From an uncultured Verrucomicrobiae bacterium (GTDB taxonomy: Bacteria; Verrucomicrobiota; Verrucomicrobiia; Limisphaerales; Palsa-1400), in contig OY969763.1 of the NCBI GenBank assembly GCA_963702845.1, positions 1,024,001 to 1,088,000 on the forward strand: a stretch of 64,000 nucleotides of DNA. Reading direction: 5' to 3'. Shown here piece by piece: positions 30,022 through 44,853 of this stretch. Below the pieces are notes generated by a model that was not told the DNA's origin, did not search any database, and was given only the letters and a program-made list of their open reading frames with translations. A program made the position numbers and the translations under genes. Position 1 is the first letter of the stretch; each line of letters begins with the position of its first letter.

Positions 30022-30031
30022 TTTTGCATCC

Positions 30032-30077
30032 CGTAGTCAGTGGTCAGTTGTTTAAAACTTCTGAACCACTGACTACG
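30032..30077. repeat. 13-bp perfect inverted repeat between the first gene and gspE
   Basis: cgtagtcagtggt / accactgactacg. Confidence 0.7.
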
Positions 30078-30092
30078 AAAACTGATCAGCTC

Positions 30093-31817
30093 ATGACGCA
30101 GCCCCAAATACAGGACAGCAAGCAGTTGCTCGACGCGATGGTTAAGCGCAAGCAACTCTCTGCGCTCGATTCCGGCGCGTGGGAAAAATACGCGCGCTCC
30201 GGCCCCCGGCCGCTCGAATCTAACGAAGAAAACGTCTTGCGTTGGTTGGCTAAAGAGTACGATTTATCTTTCACCACGCTGGATGACGTCGAGCCGGATA
30301 AAGAACTGCTTTCATTATTTCCCGCGCGCGTTTTATTGAAGGAAGAACTTCTCCCGCTCGCACGCGTGAATGGCACCGTTGAAGTGGCGACGAGTCGTTT
30401 ATTTGCCACGCAAGGGCTCGACGCTTTGCGTAGTTTGACTGGTCTGAAGATTCGTCCAGTCCTCGCGCCCAGTGAAGCAATTTTGCGCGAGATGAAAAAG
30501 CGCCTGGGCGTCGGCGCTGACACGATTGATACGTTGGGCGACGAAGCCGGCCTGCAAGTTGTGGACGAATCGGGCGAGGACGATGGGAACCTCGACGGTG
30601 GCGAAGACGATGCTTCGATTATCCGTTTTGTTAACCAGGTTCTTCAAGACGCGATCGAATTGCGCGCGTCGGATATTCATTTGGAACCGTTCCAAGACGA
30701 ACTGCGCATTCGCTATCGTATCGACGGCGTGCTCCAGGAAGTTCCCGTTCCATCGCAAATCAAACGCTTTCAACCTGCCATTGTTTCGCGTGTAAAAATT
30801 CTGAGTCATTTGAACATCGCGGAAAAACGCTTGCCGCAAGACGGACGTATCAAGATCCGCGTGCAGGACAACGAGGTCGATATTCGTGTGTCGATCATTC
30901 CGATGCTTCACGGTGAAGCGGTCGTTATGCGTTTGCTGCGCCAGAACGCCACGTTGCGCGGCATGGAAGAACTCGGACTTGATCCGCGCGAACTAAAATC
31001 TTTCCGCCGCGTCCTCGAACTCCCGCACGGGATCATCCTCGTTACAGGTCCGACCGGTAGCGGCAAAACATCGACGCTTTACACCGCGCTCAATGAAATC
31101 AATGACGCGGAGCGCAAGATCATTACCATCGAAGACCCGATTGAATATCAACTCAGGGGCATCAATCAGATTCAGGTTTCTGAAAAGGCAGGGCTGACTT
31201 TCGCTCGTGGATTGAGGTCCATTTTGCGTCATGATCCTGATGTCGTTCTGATCGGTGAAATTCGCGACCAGGAAACCGCGCAGATTGCGGTGCAGGCTTC
31301 GCTGACGGGTCACTTGGTTTTTTCGACGCTGCACACAAACGATGCTCCCGGCGCTTTGACGCGCCTTGTGGATATGGGCGTTGAACCTTATCTGGTGGCA
31401 TCGTCGTTGGAAGCGGTGCTCGCGCAACGTCTCGTTCGCGTCCTTTGTCCGCACTGCAAGCAGGAAGACACATCGCCTGCAGCGCTGGCTCTGAAGACTC
31501 AAATCGGAATTCCGTTCAATACGCCAATTTATGCTGCCGTCGGATGTCGGGAATGCCGGCAGACCGGTTATCATGGACGCCGAGCTATTTTCGAGTGGAT
31601 GGATAGCAGCCCCGAAGTCCGGAAGCTCATTCTAAAAAACGCTTCGTCGGATCAATTGCGCGAAGCTGCGCAACGTGATGGCATGCGCTCGTTGGCCGAA
31701 GACGGCTGGCGTTTGGTGCGCGCGGGCATAACGACGGCGGAAGAAGTTTTGCGTGTGACCAAAGATCAATCGGTTGGCGATGGGATCGAAAAATCGGCCG
31801 CAGCGCCAGTTGCCTAA
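30093..31817 (+). CDS. gspE: T2SS ATPase
   Basis: ASDIHLEP, GPTGSGKT, TIEDPIE, LRHDPD, GHLVFSTLH, CxxC/CxxC. Confidence 0.95.
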   Translation: MTQPQIQDSKQLLDAMVKRKQLSALDSGAWEKYARSGPRPLESNEENVLRWLAKEYDLSFTTLDDVEPDKELLSLFPARVLLKEELLPLARVNGTVEVATSRLFATQGLDALRSLTGLKIRPVLAPSEAILREMKKRLGVGADTIDTLGDEAGLQVVDESGEDDGNLDGGEDDASIIRFVNQVLQDAIELRASDIHLEPFQDELRIRYRIDGVLQEVPVPSQIKRFQPAIVSRVKILSHLNIAEKRLPQDGRIKIRVQDNEVDIRVSIIPMLHGEAVVMRLLRQNATLRGMEELGLDPRELKSFRRVLELPHGIILVTGPTGSGKTSTLYTALNEINDAERKIITIEDPIEYQLRGINQIQVSEKAGLTFARGLRSILRHDPDVVLIGEIRDQETAQIAVQASLTGHLVFSTLHTNDAPGALTRLVDMGVEPYLVASSLEAVLAQRLVRVLCPHCKQEDTSPAALALKTQIGIPFNTPIYAAVGCRECRQTGYHGRRAIFEWMDSSPEVRKLILKNASSDQLREAAQRDGMRSLAEDGWRLVRAGITTAEEVLRVTKDQSVGDGIEKSAAAPVA

Positions 31818-31820
31818 GCC

Positions 31821-33095
31821 ATGCCAACGTTCCAATACAGAGCGTTGCAAAACGACGGCAAGATCGCTACCGGCGAACTCGAAGCGGGCGGTCGCCAGGA
31901 AGCTTTTCGCCAAATGGAAGGACGTGGTCTGCGCCCGATCAGCCTTTCCGAGCGGCAGGGCAAGGCGAAAGCAAGTGGAAAACCGGCGACTGCCAAAATG
32001 GAAGAGCCGGTCGGTGAAGAATCCAAGGTTCCGAAACTTTCGTTCGGCGGCGGTAATAAAATTTCGGCGCGCATTCTGGAAAATTTCACGCGTCTACTTT
32101 CGAGTTTGCTCGCTGCCGGTGTCCCTTTAAGTCGCGCATTGGTCATTCTGCGCAAAGAAGCATCGACACCTCTCGCGGCGGAAAAATGGAAAGAAGTTCA
32201 CGAATTGGTCATCGACGGTATGTCGCTGGCCGACGCCATGGGCCGGTCGCCTGATGTGTTTCCGCGAGTCTACGTGGCGATGGTGCAAGCGGGTGAGACG
32301 GGGGGGTTCCTGGACCTCGTCCTTGCGCAGATTGCCGATTTTCAGTCGCGCGACAAGGAGCTGCGCGGGAAGGTGCTCGCCGCGTTAACGTATCCCATCA
32401 TTCTCGTTCTCTTGTCGATTGTAGTGATTATCGTCCTGCTCGTCGTCTTCATTCCAAATTTCATGCCGGTATTCTCGAGTTTCGGTGGTGAACTTCCGTT
32501 GCTCACAAAAATGATTTTAGCGGTAAGCAATGCGGTGCGGCATTACGGGTTGTTTGTCGGGGTGGGAATCGTCATGGCGGTGCTCCTCATTCGCAACTGG
32601 TTCGTTTCGGAGAAAGGGCGCAGAACGTGGGAGGCAATGATCTTGCGCGCGCCCGTTGTTGGAAAACTTTCCGCGCAATTCGCCATGGCTCGGTTTTGTC
32701 GAATGCTTGGGACATTGCTCGCTGCTGGCGTGCCGCTCGTGCAGTCGCTGAACGTCGCGCGCAAATCGATCGGCAATCAGGTGCTGGTTGATGCCGTTTC
32801 CAATGCGATCGAACGCGTCAAGGAAGGCGGACAGCTTGCGCATAGTTTGAGCGATTGCCGCTATTTGTTTCCGGGCTCGGCATTGGAAATGATTTCCGTC
32901 GCGGAAGAGAGCGGCAAACTCGACCAGGAATTGGTGCGTCTTGCAAACGTCACCGAGTCTGATCTTGATCGTAATATGAAAACGGCCGTTTCGCTCGTTG
33001 AGCCGCTTCTGCTGTTTTGTGTCGCAGCCCTGGTTGGGACCATCGTCATCGGAATGGTCGTTCCGATTTTCTCACTTCAACAATACATCAAATGA
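31821..33095 (+). CDS. gspF: T2SS inner-membrane platform protein
   Basis: MPTFQYRA, AGETGG, EESGKL, three TMs. Confidence 0.94.
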   Translation: MPTFQYRALQNDGKIATGELEAGGRQEAFRQMEGRGLRPISLSERQGKAKASGKPATAKMEEPVGEESKVPKLSFGGGNKISARILENFTRLLSSLLAAGVPLSRALVILRKEASTPLAAEKWKEVHELVIDGMSLADAMGRSPDVFPRVYVAMVQAGETGGFLDLVLAQIADFQSRDKELRGKVLAALTYPIILVLLSIVVIIVLLVVFIPNFMPVFSSFGGELPLLTKMILAVSNAVRHYGLFVGVGIVMAVLLIRNWFVSEKGRRTWEAMILRAPVVGKLSAQFAMARFCRMLGTLLAAGVPLVQSLNVARKSIGNQVLVDAVSNAIERVKEGGQLAHSLSDCRYLFPGSALEMISVAEESGKLDQELVRLANVTESDLDRNMKTAVSLVEPLLLFCVAALVGTIVIGMVVPIFSLQQYIK

Positions 33096-33562
33096 AAATG
33101 CCAAACTTCAAACTCCAAAGTCTAAAGAAGCGTCAAACCTCAAAGAGCAAACTTCAAGCGCGTGGGTTCACGCTCATTGAACTGATGCTCGTTCTCGTTA
33201 TCTTGAGCATCCTTGCCGCCATCGTTGTCCCGAAGTTTTCAGGACGCACCGAACAGGCGCGCCAGACGGCCGCTCAGACTCAGATTTCGAGCTTCGGAAC
33301 AGCGCTCGATGCTTTCGAAGTCGATAATGGGTATTATCCCAAAGGTCGAAACGGTTTACAGGATCTGGTGCAGCAACCGCGCGAGGCTCAGAACTGGAAG
33401 GGACCTTACGTGAAGGACATCCCGAATGATCCGTGGCAACACCCGTACATTTATGAATGCCCCGGCAAGCACAATCCGTCGTCCTACGATTTGTCCTCGG
33501 CCGGCCCGGACGGTCGCACGGGCAGTGAAGACGACACCACCAATTGGCAGAATAAGAAGTAA
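33092..33562 (+). CDS. gspG: T2SS major pseudopilin
   Basis: G|FTLIELM, DNGYYP, WKGPY, DPW, SAGPDG. Confidence 0.95.
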   Translation: MKMPNFKLQSLKKRQTSKSKLQARGFTLIELMLVLVILSILAAIVVPKFSGRTEQARQTAAQTQISSFGTALDAFEVDNGYYPKGRNGLQDLVQQPREAQNWKGPYVKDIPNDPWQHPYIYECPGKHNPSSYDLSSAGPDGRTGSEDDTTNWQNKK

Positions 33563-34099
33563 TTGAAATTCGGAAACACAACGCGCATGAACGGCAACGG
33601 TGCATTCACCTTCATCGAGTTAATCCTCGTGATGGTGCTTATGGCCGTCGTGCTCAGCCTTGTGTTCCCGTCGCTCAAAGGTTTTTTCCGCGCCCGTAAT
33701 CTCGATTCTGAAGCGCAGCGGTTTTTGGCCCTGACGCGTTATGGGCAGAGTCGGGCTATTTCCGAAGGTGTGCCGATCATTTTATGGATGGATCCGCAGG
33801 CGAAGTCGTATGGGCTAGAGGTGCAGGCCGGCTATGGCGTTAATGATACGAAGCAGCGGCAGTTTCGCCTCGATGAATCGTTGCAATTGCAGGCGCAGAT
33901 TCCAGTCGCGGGTTTAATGACTCAGTCCAATTTGTGGACGCAAGTTCGCAGAACGACGATTCGTCCGGAGATTCGTTTTCTGCCCGACGGATCGATCAGC
34001 GAGACCAGCCCCGACCGTATTTTAATCACCCAAGATAAAGACGACGCGTTGTCGATCACTGAGACAACGAACCATTTGCGGTATGAAATTCACCACTAA
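33563..34099 (+). CDS. gspH: T2SS minor pseudopilin H
   Basis: A|FTFIELI; IRFLPDG; position after gspG. Confidence 0.85.
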   Translation: MKFGNTTRMNGNGAFTFIELILVMVLMAVVLSLVFPSLKGFFRARNLDSEAQRFLALTRYGQSRAISEGVPIILWMDPQAKSYGLEVQAGYGVNDTKQRQFRLDESLQLQAQIPVAGLMTQSNLWTQVRRTTIRPEIRFLPDGSISETSPDRILITQDKDDALSITETTNHLRYEIHH

Positions 34100-34472
34100 T
34101 AAACGGTCGAAAGCTGCACGATCCGCCTTCACGTTGATGGAGGTGCTGGCCGCGTTGTTGTTCATGGCAATTGTCATTCCGGTCGCGATTGAAGGCATTC
34201 GCATCGCGAGCCTCGCGGGTGAAGTTGGGCAGCGCAAAAAAATCGCTGCACGCATCGGCCAGAGCGCACTCGATGAAATGCGTTCCAACACTCAAACGCA
34301 GAACTCTGTTTCCAGCGGTCAGGTGCAGCAAGGCGCGCTGACTTATCAATATACGATTCGCACTGAGACGTGGCCCGAAGACGCAATGCGTTTAGCGACG
34401 GTCGATGTCGCATTTGCGGTGCAGGGCAGGAATTACGACGTGCAATTAAGCACGTTACTGGCGCAACAATGA
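34083..34472 (+). CDS. gspI: T2SS minor pseudopilin I
   Basis: A|FTLMEVL; short; gene order. Confidence 0.85.
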   Translation: MKFTTNKRSKAARSAFTLMEVLAALLFMAIVIPVAIEGIRIASLAGEVGQRKKIAARIGQSALDEMRSNTQTQNSVSSGQVQQGALTYQYTIRTETWPEDAMRLATVDVAFAVQGRNYDVQLSTLLAQQ

Positions 34473-35101
34473 TTACGAGCAGCACAGTTGATTCGCGAAA
34501 GGCTTTCACCTTGTTGGAAGTCCTCATCGCTATTGCTGTTTCTGCCATTGTGCTAGCCGCGATCAACATGGTTTTCTACAGCGCTTTGCGCCTGCGCAAT
34601 CGGACGATGGCATCTTTGGACGAATCCGCGCCGATTGATCACGCTCTTGCTACAATCCGCCGTGACCTGGCGAACATCGTCGCGCCGAGCCGCACAAATT
34701 TTCCATTGCAGAGCACGATCATAAGCCAATCGCAGTTCGGTCAGATCACTCCTGATTTATATACTGCCACTGGCCAAATTGACGGACTGTCCCCTTGGGG
34801 AGATGTGCAAAAAATTTCGTACGGTCTCGCGCCTTCAGCCGACGGCATGTCACGCGATCTGATTCGAATCGTATCTCACAACCTTCTCGCCACGACAACC
34901 GAGATGCCGGAACAACAATGGCTCCTCGGCGGCGTTAGAAATATCGCTTTGCATTATTTCGACGGAGCGCAATGGGCTGATGTTTGGGACACAACCACCC
35001 AATCCAATTTACCGACGGCAATTAAAGTGGATCTGGATCTGACGAACAACTTGATGCACATGGTCGTCGCATTGGACACACAAGTGAGAACGAATCAATG
35101 A
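34469..35101 (+). CDS. gspJ: T2SS minor pseudopilin J
   Basis: A|FTLLEVL; IRRDL; YFDGxxWxxxW...LPTAIKV. Confidence 0.87.
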   Translation: MITSSTVDSRKAFTLLEVLIAIAVSAIVLAAINMVFYSALRLRNRTMASLDESAPIDHALATIRRDLANIVAPSRTNFPLQSTIISQSQFGQITPDLYTATGQIDGLSPWGDVQKISYGLAPSADGMSRDLIRIVSHNLLATTTEMPEQQWLLGGVRNIALHYFDGAQWADVWDTTTQSNLPTAIKVDLDLTNNLMHMVVALDTQVRTNQ

Positions 35102-36432
35102 ACCTGCGCGTGTCCAATTTAGAAACCGGTTCGGTGCTCATCATCGTGCTTTGGATTGCGATTGGTCTTGTCTCGATCGCGCTCTACTTCGGGCACGCGA
35201 TGTCTTCTGAATTGCAGGCGTCTGCGAACACGGTGGCTGCGACCGAAGCCGAGATGGCAATCGAAGGCGCCGCTCGTTACGTCAGCAACGTCCTCGCGAA
35301 CGCGCAGCCCGGCTACATGCCACAAAACCTGCATTGCACGAATATCGCCATCGGCAACGCGCGGTTTTGGATAATCGGACGCGCAACCAACGACACGCAG
35401 ACGACATTGCAAGAACCGACGTGGGGCTTGGTCGATGAAGCGTCGAAGATCAATATCAACGCGACGAACATCACCTATAACGTTCTGACCAACGTGCCCA
35501 ATCTGACATCTGACCTCGCCGATGCCATTGTCGATTGGCGCAGTTCGACGTCATCGAACACTTCGATTTCGGCGAATTACTCGATGATGCAAACTTCGTC
35601 GTACACCTCCAAACACGCGCCGTTCAATACGGTTGATGAATTGCGTTTGATTTCGGGAATGGACCTTGCAACGTTGTATGGAGAAGACGCAAACCTCAAC
35701 GGGTTTTTGGATCCCAACGAAGATGATGCGGACAATCTACCGCCGAGCGATAATCACGACGGTCACCTTGACTCCGGGTTGCTGGAATTTTTAACGGTCT
35801 ACAGCCGTGAACCGAACACGGACACAAATGGTGACGTTCGTGTCAACATCAGAGACCGCGCGCAACAAACCAGGTTGCGCACATTGCTGCAGCAGCAAAG
35901 CATCCCGCAGAGCAAAATTAACTCGATGTTGTCGTGGGGACTGCAATCGAGTAACGTGCTCGAGTTCTACATTCGAAACGTGAACGTCAATCAATTGAGC
36001 GAAATGGATTTCGCTGCAATTGAGCCAAGTATTTCCGCCACCAGTAGCAATTTTCTTTACGGCTTGGTCAACATCAATACCGCGAGCGAGCAAGTGCTTG
36101 CCTGCATTCCGGGAATTGGATCAAACAACGCGCCCGCGATTGTTTCTTATCGCGAAAATAATCCGAGTCGAATCAATAGCATTGCGTGGCTTGCGCAAGC
36201 AATGAGCATCACGCCGACGACCGCGCGGACAATCGGGCAATACATCACCAGCCGTTCGTATCAGTTTACCGCCGACATCGCCGCGGTCGGTTCCTATGGC
36301 CGTGGATATCGGCGCGTGAAATTCGTTTTCGACACCAGTGAAGGCATGCCAAAAATTATTTATCGCCAGGACCTGACCCATCTCGGTTGGGCGCTCGGTC
36401 CGCAGGCGAGGGAGGTAACTTCGATCTTATGA
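35098..36432 (+). CDS. gspK: T2SS minor pseudopilin K
   Basis: G|SVLIIVLW (no E5), DEASKININ, AIVDW, VNINTAS, DxNxNGxLD acidic loop. Confidence 0.9.
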   Translation: MNLRVSNLETGSVLIIVLWIAIGLVSIALYFGHAMSSELQASANTVAATEAEMAIEGAARYVSNVLANAQPGYMPQNLHCTNIAIGNARFWIIGRATNDTQTTLQEPTWGLVDEASKININATNITYNVLTNVPNLTSDLADAIVDWRSSTSSNTSISANYSMMQTSSYTSKHAPFNTVDELRLISGMDLATLYGEDANLNGFLDPNEDDADNLPPSDNHDGHLDSGLLEFLTVYSREPNTDTNGDVRVNIRDRAQQTRLRTLLQQQSIPQSKINSMLSWGLQSSNVLEFYIRNVNVNQLSEMDFAAIEPSISATSSNFLYGLVNINTASEQVLACIPGIGSNNAPAIVSYRENNPSRINSIAWLAQAMSITPTTARTIGQYITSRSYQFTADIAAVGSYGRGYRRVKFVFDTSEGMPKIIYRQDLTHLGWALGPQAREVTSIL

Positions 36433-37853
36433 TTTCTTTCAAACCACAACGCCTCACATCAGTTTTAGGATTGGCGTTCGACGGCAGCCAAATCGAAGGC
36501 GTCGTCCTGCGCCGCACCAATGGTCACGTGGCCGTTCGTCAGACATTTTCGGCGGCACTGACGCTTGATCCCTTAACTGCGGACACAGAATTGGTTGGTC
36601 GCGAACTGCGCAATCACCTCGACAAAAACGAAATTCGTGAACGGCGATGTGTTGTTTGCCTGCCACTGAATTGGGTGGTGTCGCTTCACGTGAAGCTCCC
36701 GGATTTGCCGGAAGCGGACATCCCGAGTTTTCTGCAGATTGAAGCCGAGCGTGGGTTTCATGCCTCGCCCGAGTCTCTCGCGATTGTAAGTTCACGATTC
36801 ACCGCATCCGATGGCGAAAAATTCGCTACGATCATGGCGGTGTCGAGGCAGAACCTTGATCAACTGGAAACGGCGTTACGCGCGGCGCAGTTGAAACCGG
36901 TGAGTTTCTCGATTGGAACCGCGGCGCTGCAACCGGTGGGCAAGAGCGGCATCGCTTTATTGCCGGGCATCGGCAACGCTGGATTGCAGGTCAATTGCGA
37001 CGGCGGCATTGCGGCGCTACGCACGATTGACGGCATCATGGAAACCGAAGGCGCGCAAAAGCGTCTCTTCGCAGACTTACTCGCGCGCGAAATTCGCATC
37101 ACCCTCGGCCAATTGCCCGAGGCCGTTCGCAACGATCTCAAAGTCGTGCGCGTTTTTGGTAAATCGGAACTCGCCCAACGCATGGCTGCGGACATCACAC
37201 CGCGTTTGGCTGCGATGAATCTGCAAGTCGAACGCGTCGACCGCGCCGCCACGGAAAGCTGGGGTAAGGTTCTGCCGCCTGAGGCGGCTGCCTCGCCGGC
37301 GATGGCGTTAGGTGCGCGCTACCTAATGGAGCACGCGGCGCCGTTCGAGTTCATGCCGGCAAAAGTGAGCGCTCTCGAGCAACTCGCTAATCGTCTCAAG
37401 GGAGGCAAACTCGGCACGGTCGGTGCAACCGCCGGCGCTGTTGTGGTGATTGGAGTTCTCGCTGTTGCGGTCCACATGGCGATCGCGGCGCATTACGAAT
37501 CGCGCTGGTCTGCGATGGAGCCGAAGGTGAAAGATCTTCAGGAAATCCAAGACAATATCAAAAAGTACCGGCCATGGTTTGACGATTCCTGTCGCAGCCT
37601 GGTTGTCCTTCGCAAGCTGACGGAATCGTTTCCCGAAGACGGCGTTGTTTCGGCGAAGACCGTCGAAATCCGCGATCAGTCCACTGTCACGTGCTCGGGA
37701 ACAGCGCGCGACAAACAATCCTTTATCAAAATGTTCGATAAACTCAGCGCCTCGCAAGGTATCTCTGACTTGACGATCGACCAGGTGCAGGGCGAAGGAC
37801 CGGTCCAATTTACCCTTAACTTTCAATGGGACGGAGGTGCTCGTGCAAATTAA
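36429..37853 (+). CDS. gspL: T2SS GspL-like protein (PilM-like cytoplasmic part, TM, PilN-like domain)
   Basis: Actin-like N-terminus (VLGLAFDG), single TM, coiled coil and ferredoxin-like end; gene order. Confidence 0.7.
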   Translation: MISFKPQRLTSVLGLAFDGSQIEGVVLRRTNGHVAVRQTFSAALTLDPLTADTELVGRELRNHLDKNEIRERRCVVCLPLNWVVSLHVKLPDLPEADIPSFLQIEAERGFHASPESLAIVSSRFTASDGEKFATIMAVSRQNLDQLETALRAAQLKPVSFSIGTAALQPVGKSGIALLPGIGNAGLQVNCDGGIAALRTIDGIMETEGAQKRLFADLLAREIRITLGQLPEAVRNDLKVVRVFGKSELAQRMAADITPRLAAMNLQVERVDRAATESWGKVLPPEAAASPAMALGARYLMEHAAPFEFMPAKVSALEQLANRLKGGKLGTVGATAGAVVVIGVLAVAVHMAIAAHYESRWSAMEPKVKDLQEIQDNIKKYRPWFDDSCRSLVVLRKLTESFPEDGVVSAKTVEIRDQSTVTCSGTARDKQSFIKMFDKLSASQGISDLTIDQVQGEGPVQFTLNFQWDGGARAN

Positions 37854-38370
37854 GAACCGCCAACAAATCCTGATTTTCGTTGCCCTCGGCGCGCTGCTGT
37901 TTTTCGTCGGCGACCATTTAGTCTTAACGCCGTTGGTCAGCGGCTGGCAAACGCGCACCAAACGCATCGCTGAACTGAAGCAATTTATAAAACAGGGTGA
38001 AATGCTGCAGGATCGCGAGCAAAACATTCGCAGTCATTGGAGCCAAATGCGGACGAATACGTTGTCCTCTAATGCGTCAGTCGCTCAAAGTGAAATCTTC
38101 AAAGCGTTCGATAGCTGGTCGCAAGACAGCCGGATGAAAGTTGGCTCGATCAAACCGCAATGGAAGCATAACGACGAGTATACGATCCTCGAATGCCGCG
38201 TTAATGCGACCGGTGATATTCAGTCCCTTTCCAAATTCATTTACGACGCCGAAAAAGACCCGCTCGCCGTGAAGGTGGAATCGGTCGAGATCACGTCACG
38301 CGACAATAACGGCCAACAATTGAGCCTGGTGCTGCAAGTCAGCGGCTTGGTTTTGAATCAGACGCAATGA
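37837..38370 (+). CDS. gspM: T2SS GspM/PilO-like protein
   Basis: N-terminal TM, coiled coil, C-terminal ferredoxin-like fold pattern; gene order. Confidence 0.7.
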   Translation: MLVQIKNRQQILIFVALGALLFFVGDHLVLTPLVSGWQTRTKRIAELKQFIKQGEMLQDREQNIRSHWSQMRTNTLSSNASVAQSEIFKAFDSWSQDSRMKVGSIKPQWKHNDEYTILECRVNATGDIQSLSKFIYDAEKDPLAVKVESVEITSRDNNGQQLSLVLQVSGLVLNQTQ

Positions 38371-39041
38371 CCAACAAGTTTAAAATTCCAGGTGTAAGGT
38401 TCAAAGTGCCGCTGCTTGTTTGCGGTTTTGGACTTCTTTTGGTTAGTGCACAAGCGGCGACGACGAATTCAGTCCAGACGACGAACTCGCCCACAGTGGT
38501 AGCCACTGCCAACACCAACACCGGAACGACTTTCCCATCGTTCAAAATTATCGCAGAGCGAAATATTTTCAGCGCAAACCGCTCCGGTCGCGTGTCTCGT
38601 GGCCCCACGACAAAGCCGACCAAAGTGGATACATTCACGCTCGTCGGAGTCGTCGACTATTCCAAGGGGATGTTCGCAATTTTCGACGGATCGAGCAGCG
38701 AATTGCGAAAAACATTGAAGATCGGCGATTCCCTCGCGGGCTTCACAATTACCGATGTCGACCTCGACCATGTCACTATCGCTAACACCAACGGTGCAGA
38801 CACGGTGTTGCATGTCGGCTCGCAGATGCGCCGGTTGGACGAGGGACCCTGGGCTCTCGGATCTGGTCCTGCGCCTCAAATCGCTAAAGCAAATAATTTA
38901 ACTTACGAAGCGGCCGATGCCGTACTGAGCGAGGACAAATCTGACAATACGAACGAAGCACCGCCGAGTGCGGAGGCAAACGATGTTCTCAAGAAACTTA
39001 TGCAAAAACGCAAAGCGGAGGTAAAAAATGAATCCGAATAA
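38367..39041 (+). CDS. GspC/PilP-like HR-domain protein (no PDZ)
   Basis: RNIF, LVGVV...AIF, LKIGDSLAGFTITDV; lies before the secretin. Confidence 0.6.
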   Translation: MTNKFKIPGVRFKVPLLVCGFGLLLVSAQAATTNSVQTTNSPTVVATANTNTGTTFPSFKIIAERNIFSANRSGRVSRGPTTKPTKVDTFTLVGVVDYSKGMFAIFDGSSSELRKTLKIGDSLAGFTITDVDLDHVTIANTNGADTVLHVGSQMRRLDEGPWALGSGPAPQIAKANNLTYEAADAVLSEDKSDNTNEAPPSAEANDVLKKLMQKRKAEVKNESE

Positions 39042-40590
39042 ATTCCTTATCATCATTTCCATTTTCGCCAGCACTCTGCTGTTGCGCGCCGACGATCAAC
39101 CAGCACCGGATAACCCGGCCGACGCACCGAAAGCAGACGCTGCAGCTGCCAAGCCGGACGCGAAGCCCGCGCCCGCCAAAACGGCCCCTGCGCGAAAACC
39201 AGCTCAACCACCGCAACTCACGGTGACGAGCGAAACTGATCGCGGTCTGCGCTTTAATTTCCGCGGCGTGCCGCTGGAAACGGTGCTGAACTACCTCAGC
39301 GATGCGGCCGGTTTCATCATTATTCCCGAGGCGGACCTGAAGGGAAAAGTCGACATCATCAGCACGCAGCCACTGAACAAGCAGGAAGCCGTCGATTTGC
39401 TCAACACCATTGTGAGTAAGAACGGTCTCGCCGCCATTCGGAATGGTCGCACACTGACCATCATCACGACCGATGAAGCGAAGAAGCGCGACATCCCTGT
39501 CATGAGCGGGTCCGAGCCTGACGACATTCCCAAGACCGACAATATCGTGACGCAGATTTTGCCGATGCACACGCTCAACGCGACGCAGTTAGCGAAAGAC
39601 CTTGGTTCGGTCGTCCCCTCATCGGCAACGCTCACTGCCAATGAAGCCGGCAACGCCCTCGTCATGACCGGCACACAAACGCAGATTCATCGTGTTGCGG
39701 AAATCATCAAGGCTCTGGATTCATCCAGTATTTCGTCAGTGCGCGTTTTCTCCCTGCGCTATGCCGATTCCAAAACGCTGGCCACCGTTATTAAAGATGT
39801 TTTCAGTTCTCCTGCTGAATCTTCCCGCGACGCCGTGCGTTCCTATTTCCGTATGCGTTTTGGAGGCGGAGGAGAGGAAGGCGGAGACAGCGGCAGGGGT
39901 TCGCGCGAATCAAGTTCAAGCGGGCGTGGCAGCAGCGGCGGCGGGAGCAAGGTCACTGCTGTCGCTGACGACTACAGTAATTCTGTTATCGTCAGCGCCC
40001 CGGAAGATCTAATGAGCACGATCGAAAAAGTCGTGAAGGAAGTGGATCAACCAGTCGAAGACGTCAGCAGCGTGCGCGTGTTCCGTTTGAAATTTGCCGA
40101 TGCCGGCGAAATGGCGGATCTGCTGAACAGCCTGTTTGGCGATGAAAGCAAAACCGACGAAAATAATCGCCCACGGTTTTCGTTCTTTACTCCTCCACAA
40201 TCAAGTTCGTCGTCCACTGCGAACGAAAGTTCGCGTGCGAAAAAGCAAGCTCGCGTTAGTGCCGTTGCAGATCGTCGCACCGGCTCAGTCGTTGTCACTG
40301 CCTCTAAACCAATGCTCGAGCAGATCGCGGAAATGATTAAAAACCTCGATGCAGACCCCGCGCGAAAGCAACAGGTCTACGTCTATTCGTTGGAAAACGC
40401 CGACGTCCAACAGGTCGAAGGTGTGTTGCATGACCTATTCCAAACCACCACGACTGCCAGCCAGCGCAGCACGCAACAACAAAACAGCGATGCTTTGACC
40501 CAACGTCAAACCAGCGCCGCTCAACAAACCACCACCGGATCGACCTTTAGCATCGGCACCGGCAACAACAGCGCTTTGCGCGGCCAATAA
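39028..40590 (+). CDS. gspD: Secretin N-domain protein (N0 + three N repeats + half of a fourth); no secretin barrel
   Basis: Signal peptide; FNFRGVPLETVL (N0); repeats VFxLxxADA...ADxxxNS; ends in a Q/T/S-rich tail. Confidence 0.88.
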   Translation: MNPNKFLIIISIFASTLLLRADDQPAPDNPADAPKADAAAAKPDAKPAPAKTAPARKPAQPPQLTVTSETDRGLRFNFRGVPLETVLNYLSDAAGFIIIPEADLKGKVDIISTQPLNKQEAVDLLNTIVSKNGLAAIRNGRTLTIITTDEAKKRDIPVMSGSEPDDIPKTDNIVTQILPMHTLNATQLAKDLGSVVPSSATLTANEAGNALVMTGTQTQIHRVAEIIKALDSSSISSVRVFSLRYADSKTLATVIKDVFSSPAESSRDAVRSYFRMRFGGGGEEGGDSGRGSRESSSSGRGSSGGGSKVTAVADDYSNSVIVSAPEDLMSTIEKVVKEVDQPVEDVSSVRVFRLKFADAGEMADLLNSLFGDESKTDENNRPRFSFFTPPQSSSSSTANESSRAKKQARVSAVADRRTGSVVVTASKPMLEQIAEMIKNLDADPARKQQVYVYSLENADVQQVEGVLHDLFQTTTTASQRSTQQQNSDALTQRQTSAAQQTTTGSTFSIGTGNNSALRGQ

Positions 40591-40607
40591 TTAGAAAGAA
40601 AACCAAT

Positions 40608-41921
40608 ATGACCCCAAAACTGACCTTTCGTTTCTGGTTCATCCTGGCCGTGTGTTGCGCGACTGCCCCCGCCTTGTTCGCGCAACGTTCCAGCGGTTCC
40701 TCCGGTTCTTCCGGCTCCTCTGGTTACGGCGGATTCCGCGGTGGATCTTCCGGAAGTTCGTCAAGTTCCGGCTCCGGCGGTAGAACTACCACCGGCACGC
40801 GCGATTATCCGAACAGCACGATGATTGGCGACGCGCTGATCACCAGTGACCCGGAAACACGACGTCTCATCGTCATCACCGACGAACAAACGCACGAACA
40901 CATCAGCCAAGTCATTTCGAATCTCGACCGCCCCAAGCCGCAGGTGTTGATCAAAGTCGTGTTCGCCGAAGTCACCTATAATAACCAGCTCGATATCGGC
41001 CTTGAAGGAGGCTTTATCCACAACACCGGCTCGTTTTTGGGCGCGGTGACCAACTTCAATATTTTGAGTAATGGCACGCAAGTCCCGATTGTGTCGCAGC
41101 AGCCGGTCAACTCGGTTTTGGGCGGTTCGACGAGTTTTGGTTTGGCGCAATCGACCGGCATTCCCGGCGGCGCTTTTGCCACACTCACAGGACAGGATTA
41201 CATCGTCACGCTCAAAGCGGCTGCTCAACATGGTAAAGTGGAAATCCTTTCCCGGCCCTCGATTCTCGCGCGCAACAATCAAAAGGCGAGTATCGTCGTC
41301 GGCCAGGAAGTGCCACTGATTACTGGTGTGAATTACGACAGCTTCGGCAATCAGCGAAACGCCATCACCTACCAAAACGTTGGTATCATTTTGGACGTCA
41401 CGCCGTTCATCACGCCAGATGGCATGGTCGAAATGATTCTCAAACCGCAAATTTCATCGGTTGATCCCAATTCAACTGTTCAGATTGCCGGGGCGACGAC
41501 TAACAGCGGGGCCATCAATGCGCCTGTGATCGATATCCGCGCCGCGGACACTGTCGTCGTAACGCCCGACGGCAACACGGTTGTTATCGGTGGTCTCATG
41601 CAGAATAACAGGGCCAGCACGATTACGAAGGTTCCGCTGCTGGGCGACATCCCCGTCCTGGGAGCGCTGTTCAAACATAAAGTGACGTCAGATACCAAAA
41701 CAGAGTTGCTTATATTCCTGACCCCATATGTCGTGCAGACGCCGCACCAACTCGCGTTGATGTCCACGAGTGAAACGAGCCGCTTGCAACTTGCTCCGGA
41801 AGCGTTTAGTGAAAAGGAACTCAACCAATTCCTGGACAACGTTCAGCTCCATAGGAAGAAGGACGCCAAGGGAGCCCGACCGACCGGGTCGAATTCGAAC
41901 TCCCCTAAGAATCAGGATTAA
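40608..41921 (+). CDS. gspD: Secretin barrel protein (half N domain + secretin core) with its own signal peptide
   Basis: MTPKLTFRFWFILAVCCATAPALFA; DPETRRLIV; PQVLIKVVFAEV; ILSRPSI; KVPLLGDIPVLGALFK; ELLIFLTP. Confidence 0.92.
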   Translation: MTPKLTFRFWFILAVCCATAPALFAQRSSGSSGSSGSSGYGGFRGGSSGSSSSSGSGGRTTTGTRDYPNSTMIGDALITSDPETRRLIVITDEQTHEHISQVISNLDRPKPQVLIKVVFAEVTYNNQLDIGLEGGFIHNTGSFLGAVTNFNILSNGTQVPIVSQQPVNSVLGGSTSFGLAQSTGIPGGAFATLTGQDYIVTLKAAAQHGKVEILSRPSILARNNQKASIVVGQEVPLITGVNYDSFGNQRNAITYQNVGIILDVTPFITPDGMVEMILKPQISSVDPNSTVQIAGATTNSGAINAPVIDIRAADTVVVTPDGNTVVIGGLMQNNRASTITKVPLLGDIPVLGALFKHKVTSDTKTELLIFLTPYVVQTPHQLALMSTSETSRLQLAPEAFSEKELNQFLDNVQLHRKKDAKGARPTGSNSNSPKNQD

Positions 41922-41935
41922 CGTATTAGTAAGCA

Positions 41936-43417
41936 ATGATCACTCGTCGCAATTGGCTCGTTTACGGAGTGCTCATTGCTGTCTGGATCATGCTCGTTGC
42001 GTGGCAGGTTGCCGAGCACATGCGCGTGCAACGGAATGCCCATCGTGCGTTGATTCATCGTGCCGAGGATATTTCCGATACTCTCGGTGTCGTCATGCGC
42101 TCGCAACGTCGTTTCGGCATCATCACTAAAGAACAATTGGAATCGGCGATGAAGGCTTTGGTCAAGCCCGGCGAAATCGATGCCATCGCGTTGCTCAACG
42201 CCTCCGGCGACGTCGTTGCTGCCGCTGGTGAAACAGTGGATGTCCAGAGCAAGGGTCTCACCTCGAGTGGCGAATACTGGGACAATCAAAATCTCGTCGT
42301 CATGAACCTGGTCGATCTCGGCACGAACATGACGCACGATCTCGAGTCCACGAACGTCACGCTTGTTCTGCCTCAAACCGAGCGCAGCCAATTGTTCAGT
42401 CGCACCAATCGACCACCATCACCGGAGGCCACAAATGAAGCGGGCCTTCCCACAACAAATCGTTTCGGTACTCGCGGCTCGCGCTGGACAAATGGTTTCC
42501 CCACATATTTTCGGAAACCCCCATGGATGAAAGATCCCGACTACAAAGCGCTGATCGAAAAACAAGGCGTGCATAGCTTTGCGTTGGTATTGTCGACACA
42601 AGCGATCACTGCCGCGGCCAACGACGATCTGTGGATGCGGCTGATGATCGTTGTTCTCGCTACGCTTGCAGCGGGCGGTGGTTTCATGGCCTGGCGCAAC
42701 GTCGCAAAAACTTCTGAACTTCAAATCCGTCTTGTCCGCGCGAGTGAGTTGAATTCGCACCTCAAGGAAATGAACCTCGCTGCCGCCGGCCTCGCGCATG
42801 AAACTCGAAATCCGCTCAATATCATTCGCGGACTCGCCCAGTTGATTTGCAAACAGGAAGATGTCTCACCGGAGGTTGCCCGGAAAACCCGCGACATCAT
42901 CAACGAAGCTGATCGGTTGACCGGGCAGCTCAATGAATTCATCAATTACTCACGCCCTCGTGAGGTGCGCCGAACCGCTGTTGACGTGCAATTCGTTGCT
43001 TCCGAAGTCGTGCGCGCGCTCAACTACGACATCGAAGAAAAGAAGATCATGCTGCAAGTTCCATCTGAGCCGTTGAAAATCCAGGCCGACGAACAACTCC
43101 TGCGCCAGGCTTTATTTAACCTGGTGCTGAACGCTATTCAGGCAGCCGATATCGGCGGAACGATTGATTTACGTTGTGGCAAGACTTCGCCGACCGATGC
43201 TTTCATCGAGATCCGCGATAACGGCCATGGCGTTGCCCCCGAAAATCGAGATGAAATTTTCAAACCATATTTTACCACGAACGAAAAAGGCACTGGCCTT
43301 GGCCTCGCCGTAGTTCAACAAATTGTCCTCGCGCACGGCTGGGAAATTGTCTGTCTGCCGAACGAACCAAAAGGCGCGATTTTGCGCATCGACCATGTTA
43401 AACTAGCTGCTGCATAA
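41936..43417 (+). CDS. Sensor histidine kinase (NtrB/ZraS-like)
   Basis: Two TMs, AHETRNPL, NLVLNA, DNGHG, FKPYFTT, GTGLGL. Confidence 0.94.
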   Translation: MITRRNWLVYGVLIAVWIMLVAWQVAEHMRVQRNAHRALIHRAEDISDTLGVVMRSQRRFGIITKEQLESAMKALVKPGEIDAIALLNASGDVVAAAGETVDVQSKGLTSSGEYWDNQNLVVMNLVDLGTNMTHDLESTNVTLVLPQTERSQLFSRTNRPPSPEATNEAGLPTTNRFGTRGSRWTNGFPTYFRKPPWMKDPDYKALIEKQGVHSFALVLSTQAITAAANDDLWMRLMIVVLATLAAGGGFMAWRNVAKTSELQIRLVRASELNSHLKEMNLAAAGLAHETRNPLNIIRGLAQLICKQEDVSPEVARKTRDIINEADRLTGQLNEFINYSRPREVRRTAVDVQFVASEVVRALNYDIEEKKIMLQVPSEPLKIQADEQLLRQALFNLVLNAIQAADIGGTIDLRCGKTSPTDAFIEIRDNGHGVAPENRDEIFKPYFTTNEKGTGLGLAVVQQIVLAHGWEIVCLPNEPKGAILRIDHVKLAAA

Positions 43418-43479: not shown

Positions 43480-44853
43480 TTGAATCAATCGAGTCCAAAT
43501 ATTGAATCTGCCAAACCTCGTGTCCTCATCGTCGATGATGATGCCAGCCAACGCAGCTTGCTTGATTCATTTTTAGGCGGGCAGGGTTTCGATACGATCG
43601 CGGTTGAATCTGGCGAGCGTGCCCTCGATGTCCTGCGCAAAGGTGGGGTGGACATGATGGTTTCCGACGTGCGCATGCCCGGTATATCCGGTCTCGAGAC
43701 GCTGCGCCTTGCTCGTCAGGAACACGCGCGCTTACCCGTTCTACTCGTCACAGCTTTTGCCGATATTCGTCAGGCGGTCGACGCCATGCGCGATGGCGCC
43801 GTCGATTATTTGGGCAAACCCATTGATCTCGACGAACTCCTCGCGTCAGTCCGGCACGCGACTGGTCTGGCGGAAAACGCGCCGCGCACTTTTAACGACT
43901 CACGAGAACTCCCGGCACAAGTCGTCGCGCAGAGTCCGCTCATGCAAGCGGTTTTTCGCGACATCTCGCTCGTCGCACCTTCCGAGAGCCGTGTTTTGAT
44001 TACTGGCGAAAGTGGCGTCGGCAAGGAAGTTATCGCCGACGTCATTCATCTTTGGAGCAAACGCGCCGATGGTCCGCTCGTTAAAGTAAACTGCGCCGCC
44101 ATTCCCGAAACGCTTTTGGAAAGTGAATTGTTTGGTCACGAAAAAGGCGCGTTTACCGGCGCGACCGCCCAGCGCATCGGCCGTTTCGAACAGGCCAACA
44201 ACGGGACGATCATGCTCGATGAAATAGCGGAAATGTCGCCGGGTTTGCAGGCCAAGCTTTTGCGCGTCACTCAAAACGGGTCATTTCAACGCATCGGTTC
44301 CAACACCGAAATTCGTTCCAATGCCCGAATTCTCGCTGCCAGCAATCGTAACCTCGAAGAAGAAGTTAAAAAGAACCGCTTCCGCGAAGATCTCTTTTAT
44401 CGCCTGAACGTCGTCGAGATGAACATCCCGCCATTGCGTGAACGTCCTGAGGACATCCTCGCATTGGCTCAAAAATTTCTCGACGAGCTAACCCAGGGAC
44501 GCGCGCGCTTGTCCGCTGCCGTAGGTGAACTGCTGCAAAACTATTCCTGGCCGGGCAACGTCCGTGAAGTGCGCAATGCCATGGAACGCGCTGCGTTATT
44601 ATCGCGGGGCGAAATGATTTTGCCCGAGCATTTGCCGATCCGCGTTCGAACCTCTTCGGAGCCCGCGCCTGCTCCGGTTATCGACGAACAAAAACTCGGC
44701 GATATTGAGCGTAGCGCGTTGCTGCTGGCGTTGAAGAAGCACGATTACAACCGCACCGAAACTGCCAAAGCCCTCGGTATCAGCCGGCGCGCGCTCATCT
44801 ACAAGCTCCAGCGCTTGCGCGAATTGGGCTATCAGATAGACTCTCCAGCGTGA
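43480..44853 (+). CDS. Sigma-54-dependent response regulator (NtrC/ZraR-like)
   Basis: REC domain, GESGVGKE, GAFTGA, WPGNVRE, Fis-type HTH. Confidence 0.96.
   Translation: MNQSSPNIESAKPRVLIVDDDASQRSLLDSFLGGQGFDTIAVESGERALDVLRKGGVDMMVSDVRMPGISGLETLRLARQEHARLPVLLVTAFADIRQAVDAMRDGAVDYLGKPIDLDELLASVRHATGLAENAPRTFNDSRELPAQVVAQSPLMQAVFRDISLVAPSESRVLITGESGVGKEVIADVIHLWSKRADGPLVKVNCAAIPETLLESELFGHEKGAFTGATAQRIGRFEQANNGTIMLDEIAEMSPGLQAKLLRVTQNGSFQRIGSNTEIRSNARILAASNRNLEEEVKKNRFREDLFYRLNVVEMNIPPLRERPEDILALAQKFLDELTQGRARLSAAVGELLQNYSWPGNVREVRNAMERAALLSRGEMILPEHLPIRVRTSSEPAPAPVIDEQKLGDIERSALLLALKKHDYNRTETAKALGISRRALIYKLQRLRELGYQIDSPA

Follow-up and report, generated by a model that had tools for sequence, protein, structure and literature searches.

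Can the outer-membrane gate of a secretion system be made of two polypeptides that each contribute part of one folded domain? The question is raised by a 64,000-nucleotide stretch of DNA (hereafter the window, whose own coordinates are used throughout) from an uncultured Verrucomicrobiae bacterium, corresponding to positions 1,024,001 to 1,088,000 of contig OY969763.1 in assembly GCA_963702845.1. Type II and type III secretion, type IV pili and the export of filamentous phage all use secretins as their outer-membrane gates. In the window, the sequence of GspD, the secretin of type II secretion systems (T2SS), is distributed over two adjacent genes, which we call g1 (GspD-N) and g2 (GspD-C). 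Judged by comparison among genomes, this two-gene secretin is a real, ancient and conserved arrangement and not a broken gene. We estimate a probability of about three in four that the locus encodes a T2SS with GspD as two polypeptides, an ancestral one-piece gene having been cut within the proximal N domain and the two halves rejoining.

The gene pair and its conservation

The g1 gene (39028..40590, plus strand) encodes 520 amino acids and ends in a TAA stop at 40588-40590. Its product consists of a signal peptide, a linker rich in P, A and K, an N0 domain, three whole N domains, the first half of a fourth, and a tail rich in Q, T and S. After a gap of 17 nucleotides (40591..40607), g2 (40608..41921, plus strand, 437 amino acids) begins in a different frame, which is closed 21 codons upstream of the g2 ATG. 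This second product has its own signal peptide, followed by an S/G-rich stretch, the second half of an N domain, the secretin core and a C-terminal tail.

Profile searches assign the parts of one GspD to the two genes. Pfam places the GspD N0 family (PF21305) at residues 77-141 of g1 (E-value 1.7e-9) and detects Secretin_N (PF03958) in three stretches, the best of which (residues 349-445) spans profile positions 1-68 of 69. The secretin channel domain is in g2, at 41220..41738 on the plus strand (residues 205-377; PF00263, E-value 1.2e-48, profile positions 2-169 of 169), and the only Secretin_N match there covers profile positions 35-69 of 69 (residues 78-112) with 21.7 bits against a cut-off of 28.2. 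The NCBIfam GspD equivalog model TIGR02517 is divided correspondingly, with 222.4 bits on g1 (model positions 1-336) and 252.7 bits on g2 (positions 266-597), each below the cut-off of 351. Thus N0 and the Secretin_N repeats of that family are found in g1 and the channel domain in g2, and what is missing is a single chain that reaches 351 bits, the pair being two open reading frames (ORFs) in different frames. GspD is also the best NCBIfam model for g2, with SctC scoring far lower, and the PilQ model TIGR02515 gives 176 bits for g2 and 64 bits for g1 against a subfamily cut-off of 284.

The same cut is present in all 51 ortholog loci that were parsed, comprising the window's own locus and those of 50 other genomes of the family, order and class. 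In each, the g1 frame stops after a strand-helix unit and a tail rich in Q, S, T and G, and the g2 start that comes next opens a product with a hydrophobic N-terminus. Because g1 lies directly upstream of and adjacent to g2 in every parsed locus, the two look like an obligate pair. Both of two further genomes from a phylum-wide sample, one of them from another class, carry the cut as well (53/53 in total). Open-frame lengths had suggested one-piece orthologs in three genomes (G031, G028 and G035), and inspection revealed stops or other frames, so all are split. Among named public genome records, which may overlap the 53 parsed genomes, 76 of 80 pass all automatic criteria, and the remaining four have a stop before g2 and miss a threshold. 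One search of public records reported 594 related stretches. The 120 best g1-like public proteins (288-620 amino acids) are all without PF00263, and the public names of near-identical g1 proteins point to Verrucomicrobiota near Limisphaerales.

The count of 51 leaves out L012, L022, L025 and L058 (duplicates of L029, L028, L027 and L032, respectively), L056, whose contig begins inside g2, the giant paralog L035, and the matches to the family within the bacterium's own genome (L001-L005). It retains some loci under a flag: L037 has a 496-nucleotide gap and probably a wrong g1 segment, L034 has a broken g2 of 265 amino acids, and the start codon is uncertain in L024, L053, L054, L057 and L060.

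The g2 signal peptide (40608..40682, plus strand, residues 1-25) has a predicted cleavage site between LFA and Q. Across 44 orthologs, the g2 N-terminus invariably combines a hydrophobic core with a net positive n-region, and the predicted cleavage site has alanine at -1 in 38 of the 44 and glutamine at +1 in 43. Mean pairwise identity in this region is just 0.23, a pattern typical of signal-peptide evolution.

Several unusual loci were encountered in these searches. The g2 ortholog of L034 (G016:C1:1954000-1962000) is spread over two frames (query positions 10-157 and 192-409), through either another break in the gene or a faulty assembly. Eleven records (L079, L082, L085, L087, L092, L104, L116, L124, L132, L138 and L139) contain a Verrucomicrobia-type split secretin at 48-56% identity under titles naming Bifidobacterium or Bifidobacteriaceae, Akkermansia muciniphila, Haliangiales or Baltobacteraceae, and these bin labels may be wrong. 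The paralog at L035:990-13415 (G025:C16, same order) is one ORF of 4141 amino acids in which a weak N0 match and 28 Secretin_N stretches accompany a secretin domain at the C-terminus. It has the appearance of a giant secretin whose periplasmic stack is very long. Secretin-matching open frames of about 4000 amino acids also occur in G018:C115 and G031:C162.

Position of the cut within the last N domain

The nearest one-piece relatives of the pair are GspD proteins of Planctomycetota (Phycisphaerae and Tepidisphaeraceae by their NCBI names; P0003, P0008, P0055 and others), with 35-44% identity to g2. Among these, P0003 (895 amino acids) shares domain number and order with the pair along its whole length. 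Residues 12-471 of g1 align with its residues 53-485, ending at helix 1 of the last N domain, and residues 72-433 of g2 align with 574-893, from strand 2 of that domain onward. When P0003 was modelled with AlphaFold2 (50-row alignment; mean predicted local distance difference test score, pLDDT, of 63), a strand at 462-468 and a helix at 474-484 were followed by pLDDT below 50 at 489-560, and then by strands at 579-583 and 588-594 and a helix at 595-608 before the channel. In the nearest one-piece relatives, the low-confidence loop at the cut site is roughly 70-90 residues long, and in 34 one-piece metagenome loci the loop of the last N domain ranges from 25 to 206 residues and is rich in G, Q, N and S. 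This colinearity and the long loop of the one-piece relatives indicate that the loop's two stumps persist as the g1 tail and as the S/G-rich beginning of mature g2. Unlike the split pair, the Planctomycetota proteins have a continuous loop without a stop or an internal signal peptide.

Strand 1 and helix 1 of the last N domain, its orphan first half (40363..40440 on the plus strand, g1 residues 446-471), repeat, by eye, the strand-helix of both preceding N domains. The orphan second half (strands 2 and 3 and helix 2; 40833..40931 on the plus strand, g2 residues 76-108) is the region that matches the end of the Secretin_N profile, and it aligns with the second half of N3 in the solved GspD chain 5wq7. 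A g2 profile matches solved canonical GspD chains, 5wq7 and 5wln among them, over all that follows the first half of N3, with E-values of 1e-55 to 1e-46. Over 44 orthologs both orphan halves are free of gaps, with mean pairwise identities of 0.43 (g1 half) and 0.47 (g2 half), and the loops and tails of the same orthologs have 0.27-0.29.

In addition, we joined the two products of each of 19 in-frame ortholog loci across their stops, written as X, and folded the one closest to the window (L008, whose proteins are 73-80% identical to the window's g1 and g2). The resulting read-through model has a mean pLDDT of 63, with both halves at block means of about 85-92. Its residues 103..294 superimpose on the single N3 domain of Vibrio cholerae GspD (9k8v_A; Z 10.4, root-mean-square deviation 1.2 Å over 59 residues) and on N3 of GspD from enteropathogenic Escherichia coli (5w68_A; Z 10.3, 1.7 Å over 65 residues). 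The halves together with the preceding domain superimpose on N2-N3 of 5zdh_A (Z 10.9, 3.7 Å over 124 residues).

The C-terminal tail of g1 (40441..40587 on the plus strand, residues 472-520) is of low complexity and includes a conserved motif at 40495-40557 (residues 490-510). Over the 44 orthologs Leu490 and Gly510 are nearly invariant and Arg493 (40504-40506) is invariant. The one-piece Planctomycetota proteins do not carry this Leu-x-x-Arg motif, and no conserved column was found at loop positions 485 to 576 of the one-piece relatives. The motif is modelled as a helix, at a pLDDT of about 50. As a guess, it may have arisen once the gene was cut, as a means of keeping the two chains joined.

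A second lineage is cut at the same place. P0317 (401 amino acids), which NCBI names GspD of a Brocadiaceae bacterium, proceeds from a signal peptide directly to the second half-domain. On its contigs (L146 and L147) the upstream gene ends in a strand-helix followed by a tail rich in T, G and R, and its stop overlaps the g2 start. Short Planctomycete proteins resembling g2, of which twelve were inspected, mostly begin in mid-domain without a signal peptide or are marked partial, and only P0317 was accepted as truly split.

A tree was built from 69 channel parts, 25 split and 44 one-piece, with every third row of A2 and A3 sampled together with 10 of 12 split and 27 of 34 one-piece metagenome loci; one short row was dropped. 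It places 24 split rows in one group, with a Shimodaira-Hasegawa-like approximate likelihood ratio test (SH-aLRT) support of 100, and L146 within the one-piece group, so that the starred branches force two changes of state. On this unrooted tree of channel sequences, then, the split or one-piece state has changed at least twice, and two fissions are the simpler reading because other secretins are one-piece. A distinct split group from metagenome contigs (L183-L187) branches deepest within the main split clade, with a g1 tail in which S, T, N and R abound and with FSQE at the end of the g2 signal peptide.

These results bear on a first-pass annotation of the window, which had described a secretin split between two separately exported polypeptides, with the break in a disordered loop of the barrel-proximal N domain and the halves forming complementary parts of one N-domain fold. 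Its account of the genes was correct in each detail checked (ORFs, 17-nucleotide gap, frame change and domain content). The ORFs, the Pfam matches and the conserved features of the g2 signal peptide are consistent with two exported products. Colinearity with P0003 and its low-pLDDT loop agree with the proposed position of the break, and complementarity of the halves is favoured by Pfam, the P0003 alignment, the models and the superpositions. The annotation had also proposed a search for the split in relatives, and no fused ORF occurs among the 53 parsed genomes.

Proposed rejoining of the halves and competing explanations

In the reading that we prefer, the cut in the ancestral gene would have fallen within the long loop of low complexity that joins helix 1 to strand 2 in the channel-adjacent N domain, the counterpart of N3. 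Both products would be exported by Sec. The g2 product would form the outer-membrane channel, and the g1 product would form the N0-N3 rings in the periplasm, in contact with GspC and the platform of the inner membrane. The g1 strand-helix and the g2 strand-strand-helix would join non-covalently into one N domain, tying the vestibule to the pore, and the Leu-x-x-Arg motif of the g1 tail may help to hold both chains together.

A number of points weigh against this proposal. Rejoining after export is inferred from sequences and models; a complex prediction with g1 residues 345-520 and g2 residues 27-125 (44-row alignments each) scored 0.15, below the mark of 0.32, and speaks neither for nor against binding. 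The L008 model signifies compatibility only, because it is a tethered chain of an ortholog, built from 19 sequences, with a fold familiar to AlphaFold. Conservation is somewhat higher in the intact halves of the preceding N domain (mean pairwise identity 0.56 and 0.57) than in the orphan halves, and a Pfam scan of the C-terminal 84 residues of g1 alone, at E-values up to 10, gave no match to the orphan first half. The g2 signal peptide and its cleavage site were judged by a heuristic and not by SignalP. The preference for fission over fusion is drawn from all other secretins being one-piece, and rooting of the tree with secretins from the bacterium's own genome (a single 6.03-Mb contig that also carries one-piece secretin frames of 836 and 932 amino acids) failed, since these have branches 5.9 and 8.1 long and one of them falls among the one-piece rows. 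Finally, in the public data no contig spans 40593-40693 and there is no cover at that junction. Ten public runs contain part of the stretch, with at most 0.38 of sampled words; four were compared, all as contigs. One of these contigs (X3, 40442-40592) covers the g1 tail and stop with no indel, and one contig from an RNA library covers 40250-40434 only, which does not demonstrate transcription.

The strongest competitor holds that g1 and g2 work apart. The g2 product would then be a minimal self-assembling secretin, and the g1 product would be a free periplasmic ring or adaptor in loose contact or no contact with the pore, the half-domains being kept for other contacts, such as with GspC, a pilotin or a neighbouring subunit. 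A pore without outer N domains is viable in principle, since a study of the Klebsiella secretin PulD reports that N0-N2 are dispensable for multimer assembly in vivo (PMC4604470). The lower conservation of the orphan halves also fits this view, and the conserved motif of the g1 tail could bind something else. However, the same study reports that PulD folds best with the N3 subdomain placed ahead of the C and S domains (PMC4604470), and g2 has only half of N3. A strand-helix-strand-strand-helix domain cut in half would probably be unstable by itself, yet both halves are gap-free and conserved across orders, and in the model they fit one N3 domain at 1.2-1.7 Å. Moreover, the genes are adjacent in every parsed locus and a separate lineage is cut at the identical site. 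We consider separate functions unlikely.

One fused GspD might instead be made through stop-codon read-through, frameshifting or other recoding. The gap between the genes is short, ranging from -4 to 52 nucleotides in most of the 51 loci with a median of 30 nucleotides in the 76 named-record loci, and g1 and g2 share a frame in 21 of the 51. Yet the gap varies in both length and sequence, the window's own g1 and g2 are in different frames, and all three frame relations are about equally common (relative frames 0, 1 and 2 in 21, 13 and 17 of the parsed loci and in 23, 27 and 26 of the named records). Two stops separate the genes in 5 of 19 in-frame loci, and a fused chain would hold a conserved signal peptide in mid-chain. 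Recoding is therefore very improbable.

That the split is a sequencing or assembly error or a recent pseudogene, as low-complexity DNA at both flanks of the unbridged junction might suggest, has a negligible chance and is, by comparison among genomes, already refuted, because the cut is kept in 53 of 53 related genomes and independent assemblies, each g2 has a signal peptide, and a truly broken secretin of the same genome looks different. This last gene (L004, G000:C1:212145-215477, outside the window) is a PilQ-like secretin in three frames (322, 145 and 103 amino acids) with no new signal peptides, which looks like a pseudogene or the result of local sequence errors and contrasts with the clean split between g1 and g2.

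Operon, known two-part secretins and implications

The g1 and g2 genes close a gspE-K operon, all on the plus strand. It begins with a gspE-like secretion ATPase gene (30024..31817; Pfam T2SSE, E-value 5e-140, and MshEN) and a gspF-like platform protein gene (31821..33095; T2SSF, E-value 8.8e-60). The pseudopilin genes gspG, H, I and J follow within 33017..35101 (ORFs 33017-33562, 33563-34099, 34083-34472 and 34370-35101), with Pfam matches to T2SSG, GspH, T2SSI (22.2 bits, below the cut-off of 25), T2SSJ and N_methyl. A gspK-like minor pseudopilin gene (35098..36432; T2SSK_1st, T2SSK and HHH_3) comes next. The co-encoded gspE, F, G, H, I, J and K that are associated with TIGR02517 are thus present, gspI by its sub-cut-off match, and the occurrence of GspK and GspJ in the pseudopilin set speaks against a PilQ-type assignment.

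Three ORFs between gspK and g1 (36387-37853, 37837-38370 and 38367-39041, within 36387..39041 on the plus strand) have the positions of gspL/pilM, gspM/pilO and gspC/pilP, respectively. They have no match to a Pfam family over its cut-off and no firm match to PilM, PilN, PilO or PilP, and these roles are assigned by position only. The last ORF, which overlaps the g1 start by 14 nucleotides, has a weak match to the NCBIfam model GspC_delta (E-value 0.001). Directly 3' of g2, and on the same strand, Pfam identifies a histidine kinase (41936-43417) and a sigma-54 response regulator (43480-44853), whose position suggests a regulatory pair linked to this T2SS. A similar kinase ORF was seen by eye after g2 in plus-oriented ortholog loci.

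Canonical GspD proteins (E. coli 5wq7, Pseudomonas aeruginosa XcpQ 5wln, Klebsiella PulD 6hcg, and V. cholerae 5wq8 and 9k8v) are single chains with the same order of N0, Secretin_N repeats and core, also encoded in gsp operons. The pair is different in having two chains, a second signal peptide, long low-complexity loops in its N domains, and one N domain more than the solved proteins (three whole and the split one). By its sequence relationships, the g1/g2 system descends from and works like GspD, failing only the criterion of a single chain.

The first-pass annotation knew of no description of this architecture, and that statement holds only in part. A two-gene ("split") secretin, RhcC1/RhcC2, is known from the type III secretion systems of rhizobia and some Pseudomonas syringae, where the function of the split is described as unknown (PMC3574062, PMC3973906). 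It resembles g1/g2 in having N-terminal and channel parts on separate genes. The Rhc pair is built differently, however, according to its published description. A complete Tad-type secretin carrying a BON domain, RhcC2, took the place of the C-terminal portion of an older secretin, and RhcC1 keeps a whole N domain and is a possible linker, with the rhc genes lying apart in their cluster (PMC3459982). The g1 and g2 genes derive, on the present evidence, from one gene, are adjacent and are cut through a domain. Also, Pfam finds only Secretin and half of Secretin_N in g2, and the surroundings are gspE-K instead of a type III secretion cluster. A full-text search of the literature, to which subscription journals are mostly external, found no paper on a split T2SS secretin.

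The engineered PulD construct 28-42/259-660 (N3, C and S) is comparable in that its multimers assemble without the outer N domains and that the barrel-proximal N3 matters (PMC4604470). It is a laboratory truncation in which N3 is whole and N0-N2 are omitted. In the split system, N0-N3 would be supplied by a second chain and the proximal domain is halved, and given the PulD findings this halved domain is the interesting part.

The vestibule had also been proposed to be a detachable and potentially exchangeable module, for which we find no support. In a search of the genome for additional N-module paralogs, g1 itself was the sole match to its half-domain and tail, and pairing is always one to one. 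Other Secretin_N matches in the genome are one-piece secretins, a frameshifted one, and a weak match in an unrelated protein of 287 amino acids. The latter (G000:C1:4920973) was rejected as an N module, being an exported protein encoded beside a sigma-factor-like gene.

Automatic annotation calls g1 a "secretin N-terminal domain-containing protein", and because both halves fall below the GspD equivalog cut-off, the secretin of such systems may be counted as absent. Assembly of the secretin ring and its coupling to the inner membrane are still studied through engineered truncations. A natural two-chain secretin that is cut in a folded domain and has long been kept in a large clade, including a cultured Limisphaera (sp. 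VF-2, L101), would be a ready-made system for such studies. It opens the questions of whether the proximal N domain is needed for pore assembly, whether pore and vestibule form separately, and how stable a complemented ring-building domain is.

A tentative extension of the two-polypeptide reading, which we regard as improbable, is fragment complementation in the periplasm. The pore (g2) and the platform-bound vestibule (g1) would form separately across the cell wall and lock through their shared N domain, with the Leu-x-x-Arg motif helping. If this is true, docking of the pore would be a separate step that is possibly reversible or regulated, and the cutting of the same loop in two lineages would reflect a real advantage of a two-piece channel and not mere tolerance.

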